Shown here piece by piece: positions 48,500 through 63,169 of a stretch of DNA of 64,000 bases. Under the pieces are notes generated by a model. The model worked only from the letters and a program-made list of their open reading frames with translations, did no database searches and was not told the origin of the DNA. The stretch is from Escherichia phage vB_EcoM_ASO2A. The translations under genes and the position numbers were made by a program. The DNA lies in sequence record MZ726793.1. One strand, written 5' to 3'. The stretch's first letter is position 1. Every line of letters starts with the position of its first letter.

Positions 48500-49459
48500 T
48501 TAGATTCCAATAATAGTTGCTGCTCGTTTATCCTTGGATCTGGTGTTTGCTCTACTACGTGACAAACCGCCGCAAGATTCACAACGAATGATATCGAAAG
48601 AACTTACCGCAGTGTGGTATTGTTTACCAGTAACAACGTGAACGTGATCACTGCCACAACGAGAACAACGGACCTTCTCATCTGGGTAATAAGCGGATAA
48701 GTTAGGATGCTGTGGAATCCACGGAAGGATTTTCATATACAAATCACGGAGTGAAACAACATCACCATCATTGTAAATCTGCATACGTTCAAAAGCATCA
48801 CGATCACCTTCACAACATGCTTTCCATAAAGGGAATCCCTCGTTATCCAGTTTTTCACTTTCTGTTTCGAAATATGCTCCCATTTCTTTAAGGGAGTTGG
48901 AAGGAAGTGCAAATTGTTTCTTAGCTGCCTTCAATGTATCAACAACTACATAATTAGAAGGAGGAGCCATATCGTGATATGCAAATCGTTGGTTAATGTA
49001 TGCACGGTCAAACTTATACCCGTTGTGTGCCACAACTACATCTGCCTCATTCAGAAGGTTCCAAAGATCTTGGCAAAGCTCCCAATCATCTGTATGATCA
49101 ATATCAAAAAGAGGATAAGAAGACAAGTTCTTACCTTCCACTTCACCAGTATACAGGTCAGCAGAAGAGTAAGATAACAAATAACCCCTACGAATTACTT
49201 GATCTGGAGAAATGAAGGCTTTGAATCGACGGAAAGTATATGCAATCTCTGGTGCAGTTTCAACATCAATAATTTTAATAACGGGTTGTTTCTTTTTAAC
49301 TGGCTCTTGTTTACTTGCTCCAAATCGTGCAAGGAAATCGTTCACTGTGCTTTTTCTTGTTGGACTACCTAAAACAATTGCTGCAATATTACGAGAAGAC
49401 ATACCCTCTGCACTCATACTAAGGATATCTGCTTTCTGCTCTTCTGTTAATCTGCTCAC
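48500..49459 (-). CDS. DnaQ-like (DEDD) 3'-5' exonuclease
   Basis: 319 aa; Exo I motif IIDVETAP, VVAHNGYKFD, C-terminal Cys cluster. Confidence 0.6.
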   Translation of the reverse strand: MSRLTEEQKADILSMSAEGMSSRNIAAIVLGSPTRKSTVNDFLARFGASKQEPVKKKQPVIKIIDVETAPEIAYTFRRFKAFISPDQVIRRGYLLSYSSADLYTGEVEGKNLSSYPLFDIDHTDDWELCQDLWNLLNEADVVVAHNGYKFDRAYINQRFAYHDMAPPSNYVVVDTLKAAKKQFALPSNSLKEMGAYFETESEKLDNEGFPLWKACCEGDRDAFERMQIYNDGDVVSLRDLYMKILPWIPQHPNLSAYYPDEKVRCSRCGSDHVHVVTGKQYHTAVSSFDIIRCESCGGLSRSRANTRSKDKRAATIIGI

Positions 49460-50574
49460 TCTGCCTCCTGTTGTGAGATGTATGACTGAAGCATACTCTC
49501 AAATGTTGTATCGTCATTATCCCAGCGTTTCATGTATACCAACTGGAAAATTGTTTCTATCCATTCATCTGTTGTCATATGGACTTCTTCTCCATCCCAA
49601 GAAGTAAAATTAACACCATCTGGGAACCATGAGTAGTAAGTATCTTTAACTGTTTGGAAAAGTTCTGCTTGAGTTTTACAAGCTGAAAGAAGATTAAAAC
49701 AAGTAATATCTCCGAACTTAATATCAAAATCTTGATAAGGTCGGATACTATCTGTTTTATCTCCCATTAGCATCTGATATGCTAACCAGTAACTGCCCCA
49801 ACCTTTAACTTCTTTCTTTTTACCTTTATCTACGATCCATATATCGCCAATAGACTCGTCAATAAGAATTATATCTGGATTTTTAAATACTCCATCCTCT
49901 TTGTAGAAATTAAAAAGGATACTAGGAGTATGTAAACTATCTTTATCTATAGATACTACGATATAAGAAAATTTACCCGTCCTTTTATAATCTTTATAAC
50001 CTTGGAAACCATACTTCTCTAACTCATCATCAGCTTCTATTACAGTAACAACATCACCATTGTGGAACTCCACAAGATAATCTTTGGTTTCTGAAAGCTG
50101 AAGTGGTTTGATATCTAATCGTTCAGATTTATATTCTACAGGCATTTTGAAGGCGTGTCTGAAAGTTTTTCCTACGCCAATAACTCCGCAATATTTTTCT
50201 AAACGTAGATGTTTTAGAATACCTAAGACTTTTGTTTTAGCTGCTTGGAAGGTGTGTCCGATATCTTCTGGCGGGTATTGCTTATCAATGATTTCGAACT
50301 CTTCCTTTGTGAAGGGACGTTTGTTTTTGGAGGATCTTTCTGCATTTGTATCTCCTAGCCAACCTCCAATTTTAGTCTTGCTTTTACCCCAAAACTCTGT
50401 CTTATTTTTAAATTCCTTTTGAGCACCTGAAGGGATGTGCTTCGCAATGATTGTTCTTTTCTCTAATGCAGACGCTGCTTGGAAAGCGATCTGATCATAA
50501 TCAATTGCAGCTATTGTTTCTTCATTGACATATAAATGAAGATCTTCAGGTTTAATTAAAATATAACCGCTAAT
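49456..50574 (-). CDS. FEN / RNase H-like 5'-3' exonuclease (start codon uncertain)
   Basis: Frame open from 50586 to 49456; IDYDQIA and GDKTDSI resemble T4 RNase H; no in-frame ATG/GTG/TTG before 50145; ATT at 50574 follows AGGGGG. Confidence 0.5.
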   Translation of the reverse strand: MSGYILIKPEDLHLYVNEETIAAIDYDQIAFQAASALEKRTIIAKHIPSGAQKEFKNKTEFWGKSKTKIGGWLGDTNAERSSKNKRPFTKEEFEIIDKQYPPEDIGHTFQAAKTKVLGILKHLRLEKYCGVIGVGKTFRHAFKMPVEYKSERLDIKPLQLSETKDYLVEFHNGDVVTVIEADDELEKYGFQGYKDYKRTGKFSYIVVSIDKDSLHTPSILFNFYKEDGVFKNPDIILIDESIGDIWIVDKGKKKEVKGWGSYWLAYQMLMGDKTDSIRPYQDFDIKFGDITCFNLLSACKTQAELFQTVKDTYYSWFPDGVNFTSWDGEEVHMTTDEWIETIFQLVYMKRWDNDDTTFESMLQSYISQQEAE

Positions 50575-50586
50575 ATTTCCCCCTAG

Positions 50587-50796
50587 TTATTCATCGTCAT
50601 CCTCTGTTGAGAATGTTTTAGTATACGGACATTGACGACTTTTCGGGATTGCTATAACTTCATCTTGGTTAGCGTTAGAATAGTAGCAATATTTTGTATT
50701 GCCATTAACTTCAGAATCAGACAAGATTAAAGTAATTTGACCTGCTGCTACTGTGAAACTAAAAGCTAAAAGAACGACTGTCAGAATCTTTTTCAT
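50587..50796 (-). CDS. small secreted protein with signal peptide
   Basis: 69 aa; MKKILTVVLLAFSFTVAAG signal-like N-terminus; SD AGGAGG. Confidence 0.55.
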   Translation of the reverse strand: MKKILTVVLLAFSFTVAAGQITLILSDSEVNGNTKYCYYSNANQDEVIAIPKSRQCPYTKTFSTEDDDE

Positions 50797-50802
50797 AACG
50801 CC

Positions 50803-50835
50803 TCCTAAAAAGCCTACCTCATTAAGTAGGTAGGC
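50803..50835 (-). terminator. Rho-independent terminator (partial)
   Basis: On minus strand GCCUACC hairpin followed by UUUUU, just upstream of the next SD. Confidence 0.45.
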
Positions 50836-50868
50836 ATAATATCATAACTAATCCCGCAAGTCAAGAAC

Positions 50869-51747
50869 TTATTTAAGGATTGTTGCTTTGGTTAAATCTT
50901 CCATCAGACCTCGAATCTCATTGAAGCACAGAAGGACTGAAGCTTCAATACTGCCTTCTTCGTCTGCAAAATATTTCGGAAAACGTAGTTTAGAAAGTTT
51001 AAACTCTTTATCCACTACGAAATCTACAACACCGTCATATTCAAGACCGATTGCAACAACATCTTTACCATCTTCTTTTAGTTCGACAGCTTTAGACTCG
51101 TATAGGGATTCTTTACTCCAAACAACAACGCCCTCGCTATCCTCCATTTTGATATAATTTCCGAGAGTAATACGATCTGCTTCGTGATTCTCCAGCAATT
51201 CACCAAAACCTTTTACAATAGCTTCTTCATGCACACTAAAACCTACCGAAGGGAAAGTCCCCAGAACGGAACGGAGGAAAGAAGTAATCTCTTCTGCAAC
51301 CTTTTTACTTCCATTAAGAACATAAAGAAGATTCGTAGTTTTATCCAAGACAACATAGTTAAAGAAATCTTCAGGTTCTGTTTCAGGCAATAGTGCAAAT
51401 TCAATATCTTCCTTCATTGCTTTTACTACTTCTTTATCGACATAAAACTCTTTACCTTCGCTCTCCATGTCCTGACGCATTTCTTCTAGACGTTCATTCA
51501 GAATACGTTTAACTTTCTTTTTATCTACCTTCTTCACAGATTGACCTACATTAAGCAGTTCAAGATCTGAAAACTCTTTTACAAATTTAGAGTCATCTTC
51601 GAAACGAACAAGACCGATAGTGTGTGACTGGGAGCCTTCTGCTGTTACAAATTCCAGAGGAATATCTGTAATGTTGTTAAGGGATGCTACAGAAGCATTG
51701 TCACCAACAACCATAGGCAGAGCGGATTTAAAAGATTTTACAAACAT
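50869..51747 (-). CDS. RdgC-like recombination-associated protein
   Basis: 292 aa; central LLP...VVLD...NLLYVLNGSKKVAEEI...FLRSVLGTFP aligns with the E. coli RdgC core. Confidence 0.5.
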   Translation of the reverse strand: MFVKSFKSALPMVVGDNASVASLNNITDIPLEFVTAEGSQSHTIGLVRFEDDSKFVKEFSDLELLNVGQSVKKVDKKKVKRILNERLEEMRQDMESEGKEFYVDKEVVKAMKEDIEFALLPETEPEDFFNYVVLDKTTNLLYVLNGSKKVAEEITSFLRSVLGTFPSVGFSVHEEAIVKGFGELLENHEADRITLGNYIKMEDSEGVVVWSKESLYESKAVELKEDGKDVVAIGLEYDGVVDFVVDKEFKLSKLRFPKYFADEEGSIEASVLLCFNEIRGLMEDLTKATILK

Positions 51748-61156: not shown

Positions 61157-61231
61157 GGCCCTGTAGCTCAATGGGAGAGCTGTCGGCTCATAACCGATAG
61201 GTAGCTGGATCGAAACCAGCCAGGGCCACCA
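61157..61231 (+). tRNA. tRNA-Met (anticodon CAT)
   Basis: Manual cloverleaf: acceptor GGCCCTG/CAGGGCC, D-stem GCTC/GAGC, loop CTCATAA, T-arm GCTGG/CCAGC, encoded CCA. Confidence 0.8.
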
Positions 61232-61233
61232 AC

Positions 61234-61308
61234 GTCTTTATGGTGTAATGGATAGCACAGGAGTCTTCTAAACTCTTAGTCAAGGTTCGATTCCTTGTAA
61301 AGACACCA
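61234..61308 (+). tRNA. tRNA-Arg (anticodon TCT)
   Basis: Acceptor GTCTTTA/TAAAGAC, loop CTTCTAA, T-arm CAAGG-TTCGATT-CCTTG, CCA. Confidence 0.8.
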
Positions 61309-61503
61309 GAACATTTTAACATGAATTAGCTCAAGTGATTTGAACCCACTACTGATCATGGTGGCAGAGAATGAGGCAAGTATGTCAGACATTATAAACA
61401 AAGGCCACGGTTATATTAGAAGACATAAATGCTCGAAGAGCACCGTTCGTGGAGAACGGGGTTGGTGGAGTCACCATTCATGGTAAAATGTTTTAAAAAA
61501 CTA

Positions 61504-61533
61504 TTGACAACTAACATTATTTTATGTTAGATT
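61504..61533 (+). promoter_or_regulatory. sigma70-like promoter (ACTATTGACAA box) for tRNA transcription
   Basis: TTGACA, 17 nt, TTAGATT; tRNA-Ser begins about 9 nt downstream. Confidence 0.5.
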
Positions 61534-61541
61534 ATAAGTAT

Positions 61542-61632
61542 GGAAGGGCAAATCGACGTGGCGACGAAAACGGTCTTGAAAACCGCCGAGCTTGAAAGAG
61601 CCTTGGGAGTTCGACTCTCCCTCCTTCCGCCA
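61542..61632 (+). tRNA. tRNA-Ser (anticodon TGA), long variable arm
   Basis: Acceptor GGAAGGG/TCCTTCC, loop CTTGAAA, T-arm GGGAG-TTCGACT-CTCCC, CCA; D-arm atypical. Confidence 0.7.
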
Positions 61633-61637
61633 GATTA

Positions 61638-61723
61638 GGTAGATTGGTGAAATGGTAGCCACGACAGTTTGCTAAACTGTAGTCGGAAACGGCGTGTAGG
61701 TTCGAGTCCTACATCTACCGCCA
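61638..61723 (+). tRNA. tRNA-Ser (anticodon GCT), long variable arm
   Basis: Acceptor GGTAGAT/ATCTACC, arm ACAGT-TTGCTAA-ACTGT, 15-nt variable arm, CCA. Confidence 0.8.
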
Positions 61724-61853
61724 AGTTCTTTTTAATATAGCTTACTTTAGCAGAGTAAATCTTCGGCAAGTGGCGGTAACCACTTTACCGATAACTCATA
61801 GTTAGTGGTGTGAACACTGGCTATTTTAAAAAGAATTTAAATATTAGTATTTA

Positions 61854-61941
61854 GGTGAGTTAATTCCGTAGGGGTAGCGGGGCAGACTGTAAATCTGTTA
61901 TCATTGCGATTCGGGTGGTTCGACTCCATCACTCACCACCA
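61854..61941 (+). tRNA. tRNA-Tyr (anticodon GTA), long variable arm
   Basis: Acceptor GGTGAGT/ACTCACC, GCAGA-CTGTAAA-TCTGT as in E. coli tRNA-Tyr, CCA. Confidence 0.8.
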
Positions 61942-61947
61942 AATTAA

Positions 61948-62033
61948 GATGAGTTGGCTGAATGGTTTAAGCGGCGGACTGTTAATCCGTGTTCGAAAGA
62001 ACGATATAGGTTCAAATCCTATACTCATCGCCA
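61948..62033 (+). tRNA. tRNA with anticodon GTT (Asn by position) and an atypical long variable arm
   Basis: Acceptor GATGAGT/ACTCATC, arm GCGGA-CTGTTAA-TCCGT, 15-nt variable arm (GTTC-GAAA-GAAC), CCA. Confidence 0.5.
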
Positions 62034-62040
62034 GAATTAT

Positions 62041-62117
62041 GGACTTGTAGAGTTAAGGTAAACCCCCAGTCGCCAAGAGGCTTCTGGAATTGCAGGTATC
62101 GAATCCTGCCGAGTCCC
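62041..62117 (+). ncRNA. tRNA-like element (degenerate, no canonical anticodon arm)
   Basis: Acceptor-like GGACTTG/CGAGTCC and T-arm-like GCAGG-TATCGAAT-CCTGC (8-nt loop); no 5-7-5 anticodon arm; no CCA. Confidence 0.2.
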
Positions 62118-62123
62118 AGCTTT

Positions 62124-62198
62124 GCTCCTATAGTATAATGGCTATTACAACGGTTTTGTAATCCGTGGATCTCTGTTCGATTCAGAGTGGGAGCACCA
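62124..62198 (+). tRNA. tRNA-Thr (anticodon TGT)
   Basis: Acceptor GCTCCTA/TGGGAGC, loop TTTGTAA, T-arm CTCTG-TTCGATT-CAGAG, CCA. Confidence 0.75.
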
Positions 62199-62473
62199 AC
62201 ACAACATTAAGGGCACTGTGATTGATCGTCGTATCCTGTGCACAAGGTCTGTTCGAAAGACAGTGTTCTTAGTATTGTGTTGATCACACAAAAAGAGTTA
62301 CCTGAAACTTGACCGGAGTAGGGTTGGATGGGGCAAAAGAAGAAGCGGCTCTCCCATCGACAGCAACGAAGAATAATATTTGACTTTGGTTTTGTATTAT
62401 TTTAAGTTAGCTTACCGAACGTAGGGCTAGTCACCCAACGGGATACTCGTCACTGTCCCACTCAATAAAACTA

Positions 62474-62503
62474 TTGACAACCAATAGTAAAATGTAGTAT
62501 AGT
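62474..62503 (+). promoter_or_regulatory. sigma70-like promoter (ACTATTGACAA box) upstream of tRNA-Gly
   Basis: TTGACA, 18 nt, TATAGT; then GTAGGGCG and tRNA-Gly. Confidence 0.5.
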
Positions 62504-62514
62504 AAAGATGTAGG

Positions 62515-62588
62515 GCGTTCTTGGTGTAGCGGTAGCATTCCGTCCTTCCAAGTCGGCGGCACGAGTTCGATCCTCGTAGAACGCTCCA
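62515..62588 (+). tRNA. tRNA-Gly (anticodon TCC)
   Basis: Acceptor GCGTTCT/AGAACGC, loop CTTCCAA (stem has one U-U mismatch), T-arm ACGAG-TTCGATC-CTCGT, CCA. Confidence 0.65.
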
Positions 62589-62686
62589 AATTATTTAATA
62601 AAGGGTTGCCAGAAAACTTTCTCTTTTACTCATGGTTTTCTCCTTCTCTCACACCTCTTCTGGTTGCCCTTCATTAAATGATTTAT

Positions 62687-62762
62687 TGGTTTGTAGTGTA
62701 GTCCGGTAGCACACGACACTTTGACTGTCGTAGGTTTGGTTCAAATCCAGACAGACCAGCCA
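62687..62762 (+). tRNA. tRNA-Gln (anticodon TTG)
   Basis: Starts with U like E. coli tRNA-Gln; acceptor TGGTTTG/CAGACCA, arm CGACA-CTTTGAC-TGTCG, CCA. Confidence 0.75.
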
Positions 62763-62855
62763 TATAACAAAGGTGAGTCACTACCTCAAGTGTGAAGTTA
62801 AAAACGAGGAGCCGCCGAACACTTTCTTTTGCGGTGTACCTTTAGAATGTTATGA

Positions 62856-62932
62856 CGGAATTTAGCTCAGTTTGGTAGAGTGTACGCTTTGGGAGCGTAT
62901 TGTCGCAGGTTCGAATCCTGCAATTCCGACCA
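62856..62932 (+). tRNA. tRNA-Pro (anticodon TGG)
   Basis: Starts with C like E. coli tRNA-Pro; acceptor CGGAATT/AATTCCG, arm TACGC-TTTGGGA-GCGTA, T-arm GCAGG-TTCGAAT-CCTGC, CCA. Confidence 0.8.
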
Positions 62933-62938
62933 ATTAAA

Positions 62939-63012
62939 TGTTTCGTAGTTCAATGGTAGAACCCACGACTGATAATCGTGAGATACAAGTTCGATTCTTG
63001 TCGAAACAACCA
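62939..63012 (+). tRNA. tRNA-Ile (anticodon GAT)
   Basis: Acceptor TGTTTCG/CGAAACA, D-stem GTTC/GAAC, arm CACGA-CTGATAA-TCGTG, CCA. Confidence 0.75.
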
Positions 63013-63014
63013 GT

Positions 63015-63084
63015 TTCCCGTTAGACTTACAGGATAAGAGTTCCACAATTTATTGTGACGCTGGTTCGAATCCAGCACGGGATA
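63015..63084 (+). ncRNA. tRNA-like element with aberrant anticodon arm (possible pseudo-tRNA)
   Basis: Canonical T-arm GCTGG-TTCGAAT-CCAGC and 6-bp acceptor, but the anticodon region folds as CACAA-TTTA-TTGTG; no CCA. Confidence 0.25.
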
Positions 63085-63090
63085 CATAAT

Positions 63091-63169
63091 AGCGGGATAG
63101 AGGAGTCTGGTCGTCCTCGCCAGTTTCATATGCTGGAGATCATTGGTTCAAATCCAATTCCCGCCTCCA
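63091..63169 (+). tRNA. tRNA with anticodon CAT (Met, or Ile2 if modified)
   Basis: Acceptor AGCGGGA/TCCCGCC (1:72 mismatch), 11-nt D-loop, arm CCAGT-TTCATAT-GCTGG, CCA. Confidence 0.7.

Follow-up and report, generated by a model that had tools for sequence, protein, structure and literature searches.

Translation of a putative phage nuclease very probably starts at a near-cognate AUU codon in the 64,000-nucleotide stretch of Escherichia phage vB_EcoM_ASO2A DNA analyzed here (record MZ726793.1; hereafter the window), an assignment that builds on comparison with related phages. The full-length coding sequence, of the flap endonuclease (FEN) / 5'-3' exonuclease family, occupies 49456..50574 on the minus strand and encodes 372 amino acids between an ATT start and a TGA stop. 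The proposed initiation codon (50572..50574, minus strand), at which the annotated coding sequence of Escherichia phage ESCO13 also starts, lies 4 nucleotides 3' of a Shine-Dalgarno (SD) sequence, AGGGGG (50579..50584, minus strand), that would direct initiation. Most GenBank records carry a 229-residue open reading frame (ORF) with an ATG start (49456..50145, minus strand), corresponding to the C-terminal 61% of the real gene, and the N-terminal 142 codons (50146..50571, minus strand), which hold the IDYD motif (D25/D27) and a family-specific insertion, are absent from nearly all database annotations.

The frame concerned, 49456..50586 on the minus strand, comprises 376 open codons up to the TGA at 49458..49456, and no ATG, GTG or TTG occurs in it before codon 147, which is the ATG at 50145. 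Measured 5' of this ATG, the open stretch extends 147 codons back to the preceding stop and 143 back to the ATT, which bears out a preliminary description of the DNA, where the frame was said to remain open for about 145 codons without a canonical start. It is the sole long frame in the window with a start-less leader of this length, and 147 codons without ATG, GTG or TTG have a probability of ~2e-4 given the 5.6% internal frequency of these codons in the window's long ORFs. As also described, the frame opens directly after the TAA (50589..50587) of a small ORF in the same frame and runs CTA GGG GGA AAT ATT AGC GGT TAT, placing AGGGGG and then the ATT in phase. Of two nuclease-like motifs assigned to the upstream stretch, IDYDQIA indeed resides there (50505..50485, minus strand), while GDKTDSI belongs to the annotated ORF (49764..49744, minus strand).

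Coding status and nuclease fold

Sequence comparison indicates that the stretch upstream of the ATG is coding and under purifying selection. The 147-residue extension alone matches the 'exonuclease' family phrog_107 (E=5e-7), and the full frame does so over residues 14-371 (E=8e-56). A search of 5.8 billion proteins recovered 84 homologues, most of 340-373 amino acids, covering 94-97% of the full-length query. Conservation was scored in an alignment of 70 homologues, with residues numbered according to the 372-residue protein. Highly conserved positions of the extension include D25, D27, H46, G50 and R139, with both aspartates at least 90% conserved, and the extension, including D25/D27 and R139, is retained down to ~30% identity. 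Between lineages, the non-synonymous divergence (dN) is 0.18-0.47, far below the synonymous divergence (dS), which is near or beyond saturation. As dS is saturated in most lineage pairs, substitutions were counted among near-identical genomes: the six close relatives (98-99.9% identical) revealed 10 distinct substitutions in the extension, nine of them synonymous at the third position. The single non-synonymous change is specific to the window, with S81 where all six have alanine. The 229-residue ORF probably could not be the functional unit, since the first strand and acidic pair, along with ~140 residues of the fold, are missing from it. In the unannotated N-terminal gap, the RefSeq entry of phAPEC8 lists a 40-residue hypothetical protein in another frame (G377_gp266; 50223..50345, minus strand), which is almost certainly spurious, and 'hypothetical protein' calls are present in this gap in several other records as well.

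The proposal that the gene encodes a FEN/RNase H-like nuclease is supported by phrog_107, by the acidic motifs and by the predicted fold. Besides IDYDQIA and GDKTDSI, the frame contains EADD (50037..50026) and DKD (49947..49939), both on the minus strand within the 229-residue ORF, and E180, D182, D183, D210, D212, D272 and D275, which belong to the putative acidic metal-binding clusters E-x-D-D, D-x-D and G-D-x-x-D, are invariant in the 70 homologues. An hhalign comparison with T4 RNase H, weak by its scores (E=0.004, probability 8.7%), pairs the YK..R, EADD, DKD/DGD and GD..D motifs and stops short of the N-terminus owing to the family-specific insertion. The T4 sequence employed was checked, being 99.7% identical to T4-like 'ribonuclease H' genes. 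At the N-terminus, IAAIDYDQIAF resembles ICLIDFSQIAL of T4 RNase H, in which Asp19, within IDFSQIA, is a metal ligand. D25/D27 may thus be equated with Asp19, judging by local motif likeness and fold rather than by a scored alignment.

AlphaFold2, supplied with the 70-sequence alignment, placed all 372 residues in a single confident domain (mean predicted local distance difference test, pLDDT, 96.3; predicted template-modelling score, pTM, 0.90), with residues 5-25 contributing strands and a helix to the core. A PDB sequence search with the profile from the same alignment gave no match, so that a fold search was needed. The structures recovered were a plastid 5'-3' exonuclease (9l55; score 16.7), the Mycobacterium smegmatis flap endonuclease (15.0), Escherichia coli ExoIX (14.6), T5 exonuclease (14.3) and T4 RNase H (13.8). 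Foldseek agreed, with T5 D15 and ExoIX as its top matches, and the model displays the PIN-like alpha/beta core common to solved FENs. Collectively, the prediction supports a putative flap endonuclease / 5'-3' exonuclease with the T5 D15 / T4 RNase H / ExoIX fold, and the sequence comparisons suggest a divergent branch of the FEN family that is recognized by phrog_107.

Start site and rival explanations

The SD upstream of the ATT is of ordinary strength for a gene start: the duplex of AGGGGG with the 16S 3' end is estimated at -9.3 kcal/mol, against a median of -9.1 for the window's gene starts, and only 0.9% of the near-cognate triplets in the window are preceded by an SD this strong. Its 4-nucleotide spacing equals that of the neighbouring small ORF (AGGAGG-CGTT-ATG). 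For comparison, the beginnings of the open frames were lined up in 58 viral contigs, several GenBank phages and three metagenomic contigs. Within the window's clade (phAPEC8/phi92-like, IDYD motif present, 50-100% protein identity), the 15 distinct start-region sequences have ATT in eight cases, ATC in five, ATA in one (L017) and CTG in one (L018) as the homologous start codon. This codon is invariably located 3-5 nucleotides 3' of AGGAGG, AGGGGG or AAGGAGGT (-9.3 to -12.9 kcal/mol) and 23-25 codons ahead of the first conserved Asp. Conservation of the protein sets in at the same place: 3' of the codon the residues are kept with synonymous codon variation, and 5' of it they are not, except for a Gly-Gly incidentally encoded by the SD. 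In one relative (L009), the ATC comes straight after an in-frame TAA, hence the N-terminus cannot lie further upstream there.

In the rV5-like sister clade, ATG, GTG or TTG follows an SD at the equivalent place. The alignment with related-phage nucleases that had been suggested as a check puts the N-terminus at the ATT, with 'MGYP' of these homologues over 'ISGY' of the window. Homologues from KPP10-like Pseudomonas phages and a Pectobacterium phage have ordinary ATG starts. Conserved coding sequence is accordingly found upstream of the first canonical start, and a near-cognate codon stands at SD spacing where homologues begin. In E. coli, the near-cognate triplets AUA, AUC, AUU and CUG initiate at 1-2% of the AUG level and the other 57 codons at 0.1-1%, and for infC and pcnB an AUU start has been confirmed (Hecht et al., bioRxiv 10.1101/063800). 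The four codons of the clade's start site are exactly those four. Non-AUG initiation at the ATT, one of three explanations initially offered, is therefore strongly supported by the comparison and coincides with the curated ESCO13 annotation.

The remaining explanations fare less well. That the 229-residue ORF from the ATG at 50145 is the real gene, with the upstream frame as a decaying remnant or non-coding, would accord with nearly all GenBank records and with a canonical codon, but we consider it very unlikely. The upstream part is under purifying selection, matches phrog_107 by itself, retains D25/D27 and R139 and belongs to one confident predicted domain, so homology covers the extension rather than placing the beginning of the nuclease domain at this ATG, the outcome that was named as a refutation in the preliminary description. 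No SD-like sequence is present ahead of it, and relatives either lack an ATG there or first show a canonical codon at places ranging from codon 16 to codon 200. Readthrough of the small-ORF TAA, or frameshifting, to yield a signal-peptide-nuclease fusion draws on the shared frame with one TAA between the two ORFs, and on a 444-residue 'fusion' protein (P0005) in a protein collection. The small ORF is however in a different frame in four relatives (L005, L006, L062 and L063), two in-frame stops intervene in L009, and L017 and L018 have tandem stops. Moreover, L066 keeps AGGAGG-AAAG-ATT although a DNA methyltransferase gene takes the upstream place, and a secretion signal on a replication nuclease would be functionally senseless. 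P0005 itself (L065 1380..1440, a 4.4-kb contig) is an artefact, in which the gene caller read an in-frame TAG as Gln; the DNA at the junction has an ordinary TAG followed by GGAGGG-TAAT-ATC. Neither a conserved frame relation nor a single leaky stop was found among the relatives, and the fusion idea is refuted by these frame changes, extra stops, the gene replacement and the P0005 artefact, leaving it an exceedingly slim chance. That the small ORF shares the nuclease frame holds for the window but is incidental.

A sequencing or assembly error that conceals a canonical start or an indel has nothing in its favor beyond the absent start codon, and its likelihood is practically negligible. The region compared with phage records, 49300..51000, is 95-100% identical in 64 independently sequenced records, almost all of Phapecoctavirus (phAPEC8-like, subfamily Stephanstirmvirinae). 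A base-by-base comparison with six close relatives, in which the substitutions are mostly synonymous, found ATT and AGGGGG unchanged in every one, and divergent lineages share the architecture with other near-cognate codons. Five of the six have the single difference 5' of the ATT, a C>T at 50586 shortly ahead of the SD. These data refute the error explanation. A non-canonical start elsewhere, at the in-frame ATT 50562..50560 or 50556..50554, or by SD-independent reinitiation after the small ORF, appears unlikely. Several in-frame ATT codons indeed fall within seven codons of the first, and the upstream ORF ends 8-21 nucleotides before the near-cognate start in every relative, as expected for termination-reinitiation. 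Yet the conserved 3-5-nucleotide SD spacing of all lineages belongs to the first ATT only, the later ones vary synonymously (ATT/ATC/ATA) as ordinary Ile codons do, with the intervening SGY conserved as protein, and coupling is equally compatible with SD-directed initiation at the first ATT.

Several observations count against SD-directed initiation at AUU of a FEN-type gene. Scanned against Pfam, the full translation and its N- and C-terminal parts yielded nothing significant, PF02739 (5_3_exonuc_N) included, a family that only distant homologues reach, at 24-28 bits and under the 34.3 cut-off. RNA folding around the start (z = -0.06) indicated no regulatory structure, and an Rfam scan gave chance-level matches only, with no riboregulator indicated. 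Literature searches found no proteomics or ribosome profiling of the nuclease N-terminus. Some relatives possess an in-frame TTG, GTG or ATG 9-32 codons downstream that is potentially usable, for instance a TTG at codon 16 in L005 and an ATG nine codons past the ATT in L066. Finally, the position is a conserved hydrophobic one, where Ile and Leu codons might in principle serve as sense codons like any other, and for this reason the argument for the start rests on context, namely the SD, its spacing, the L009 stop and the upstream loss of conservation.

Neighbouring genes and database annotation

On the minus strand, the gene order is an RdgC-like gene (50869..51747, the upstream neighbour), a 69-residue ORF (50587..50796), the nuclease and a DnaQ-like 3'-5' exonuclease gene (48500..49459), the GTG start of which overlaps the nuclease stop (GTGA). 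Homologous neighbours of the DnaQ-like gene carry PF13482 RNase_H_2. The 69-residue ORF, the TAA of which is 12 nucleotides before the ATT, has a signal-peptide-like N-terminus as read from the sequence, two Cys and an acidic C-terminus (..TEDDDE). Its position is conserved across the clade, the methyltransferase of the uncultured relative L066 taking its place there, and its stop often overlaps the nuclease SD (TAGGAGG). A consensus scan detected a TG-extended promoter-like TTGACT-17-TATTAT followed by a terminator-like hairpin and T-run (50812..50864, minus strand), likely representing the transcription start of a small ORF / nuclease / DnaQ-like exonuclease unit. The hairpin, GCCTACC..GGTAGGC with its T-run, sits just 5' of the SD of the small ORF. 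Transcription from the promoter would begin within the 5' arm, so that the hairpin would terminate nothing but read-through arriving from the RdgC-like gene. Considering the close packing, with a 12-nucleotide gap and a stop/GTG overlap, the three genes are probably co-transcribed and coupled, with the small ORF as the probable translational-coupling partner of the nuclease.

An exact-sequence look-up showed that the 372-residue protein, beginning Met-Ser-Gly-Tyr, already exists in NCBI, RefSeq and UniProt as 'putative exonuclease [Escherichia phage ESCO13]' (AQM50955.1, YP_009786567.1 and UniRef100_A0A1Q1N971, a UniRef100 cluster of 12). The ESCO13 record gives a coding sequence of 372 amino acids from the same ATT with an annotated ribosome-binding site; the genome announcement does not mention the start codon. 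Among the 60 records listed, two have the full-length coding sequence, both of ESCO13, and the sister record ESCO5 lacks it. The extension is unannotated in most records, and we found no paper that discusses this start codon or provides proteomic evidence for it.

The starts annotated elsewhere are diverse. In phAPEC8, iGC_PHA_EC001, ev052, REC and other phAPEC8-like phages it is the ATG at codon 147 of the open frame, in Klebsiella phage phi1_175008 an ATG at codon 145 of its frame and in Citrobacter phage Tr1 an ATG at codon 123. Justusliebigvirus arall and the BASEL phage PaulScherrer are annotated from a GTG at codon 32, phi92 gp085 having the same 344-residue length, and phiWec188 and PsgM04F from a TTG at codon 16. 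Since standard gene callers accept only ATG, GTG and TTG, the nuclease is truncated by 15-143 residues in nearly all checked records, across Phapecoctavirus, Justusliebigvirus and their relatives, among them RefSeq phAPEC8, phi92 gp085 and a phage of the BASEL collection. Through this truncation, many records lack the presumed first catalytic Asp pair, and expressing the annotated 229- or 344-residue product would probably yield an inactive fragment. Correct gene models matter as these phages are therapy candidates. Near-identical genomes have also been deposited under the names of Campylobacter, Acinetobacter, Klebsiella, Pseudomonas and 'Dompiswa' phages, some with an UNVERIFIED flag, and the host labels on these records look unreliable.

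Possible start-codon tuning and known systems

How might the start operate? The nuclease would work in a replication-recombination module, being encoded between the RdgC-like and DnaQ-like exonuclease genes. The strong AGGGGG would direct ribosomes to the AUU 4 nucleotides downstream, where, by analogy to AUU starts already known, the formylmethionyl initiator tRNA would read AUU and the protein would begin with Met. Ribosomes terminating 12 nucleotides upstream on the small ORF would probably aid this initiation through coupling. A near-cognate AUU would lower initiation to ~1-2% of that of AUG, keeping the nuclease level low, and output may hinge both on translational coupling with the upstream ORF and on the state of IF3 in the infected cell. 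FEN-type nucleases such as T5 D15 are harmful when over-produced. Since the entire phAPEC8/phi92-like clade keeps AUU, AUC, AUA or CUG, weak initiation would be selected for rather than accidental.

Congruent with such selection, ATG, GTG and TTG make up 2.0% (40/2044) of the first 146 codons in the near-cognate clade, versus 3.9% in the rest of the same genes, and 5.2% of the N-terminal and 6.1% of the C-terminal part in the canonical-start clade, although the counts were drawn from mutually related sequences (window and L005-L067), which leaves the difference no more than suggestive. Selection against competing internal starts could be behind this depletion. We tentatively propose, as a possibility somewhat short of an even chance, that the near-cognate start is a selected expression-limiting device for a potentially toxic nuclease. 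It would combine a strong SD with an IF3-discriminated codon operating at ~1% of AUG, the codon drifting freely between AUU, AUC, AUA and CUG while the first third of the gene is cleared of canonical starts. If so, it would represent natural, evolutionarily replicated start-codon tuning in a virus.

The window also harbors a cluster of 10 tRNA genes (61157..63169, plus strand), two with the anticodon CAT. The first of these (61157..61231) looks to be of the elongator or Ile2 type. The second (63091..63169, 79 nucleotides) shares two traits with bacterial initiator tRNAs, an A1/C72 mismatch and a purine11:pyrimidine24 pair, and is devoid of the three G:C pairs of the initiator anticodon stem.

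Compared with T5 D15, T4 RNase H and ExoIX, the genes of which start with ATG, the window protein differs by an insertion of ~90 residues that separates the first strand from the remaining core, and the similarity is too low for PF02739 or a PDB sequence search. The position equivalent to D71 of T4 RNase H, in the second Asp cluster, is Gly in most members of the window family. The ESCO13 putative exonuclease is the same gene, with 98.5% nucleotide identity in the N-terminal part and one residue different (S81A), and its start is known from annotation only. The 'putative exodeoxyribonuclease' of rV5-like phages / Vequintavirinae (Salmonella phage SSBI34, P0037) is an orthologue, 40-47% identical over the full length and with the same N-terminus position, that starts with ATG, GTG or TTG, unlike the window gene.

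To our knowledge, AUU starts have been confirmed for very few bacterial genes, infC and pcnB among them. Near-cognate initiation is thus already known, and the window gene would be a further putative member, annotated once before in ESCO13. New here are the four near-cognate codons interchanging at one start site, as opposed to canonical codons in the sister clade, and the extent to which the gene has been mis-annotated. If the assignment is true, it provides a phage example of an AUU start with unusually strong comparative support, in which near-cognate codons replace one another at one site over evolutionary time. The closest likeness is to E. coli infC (encoding IF3) and pcnB, which likewise have an AUU start after an SD and where the near-cognate codon implies low, IF3-discriminated translation. 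Unlike these two, the window gene encodes a phage replication nuclease rather than a host regulator, and its start is a predicted one. Whereas infC is autoregulated, no feedback loop is known or inferred for the nuclease, and, in further distinction from infC and pcnB, its start codon alternates among AUU, AUC, AUA and CUG across the window's clade.

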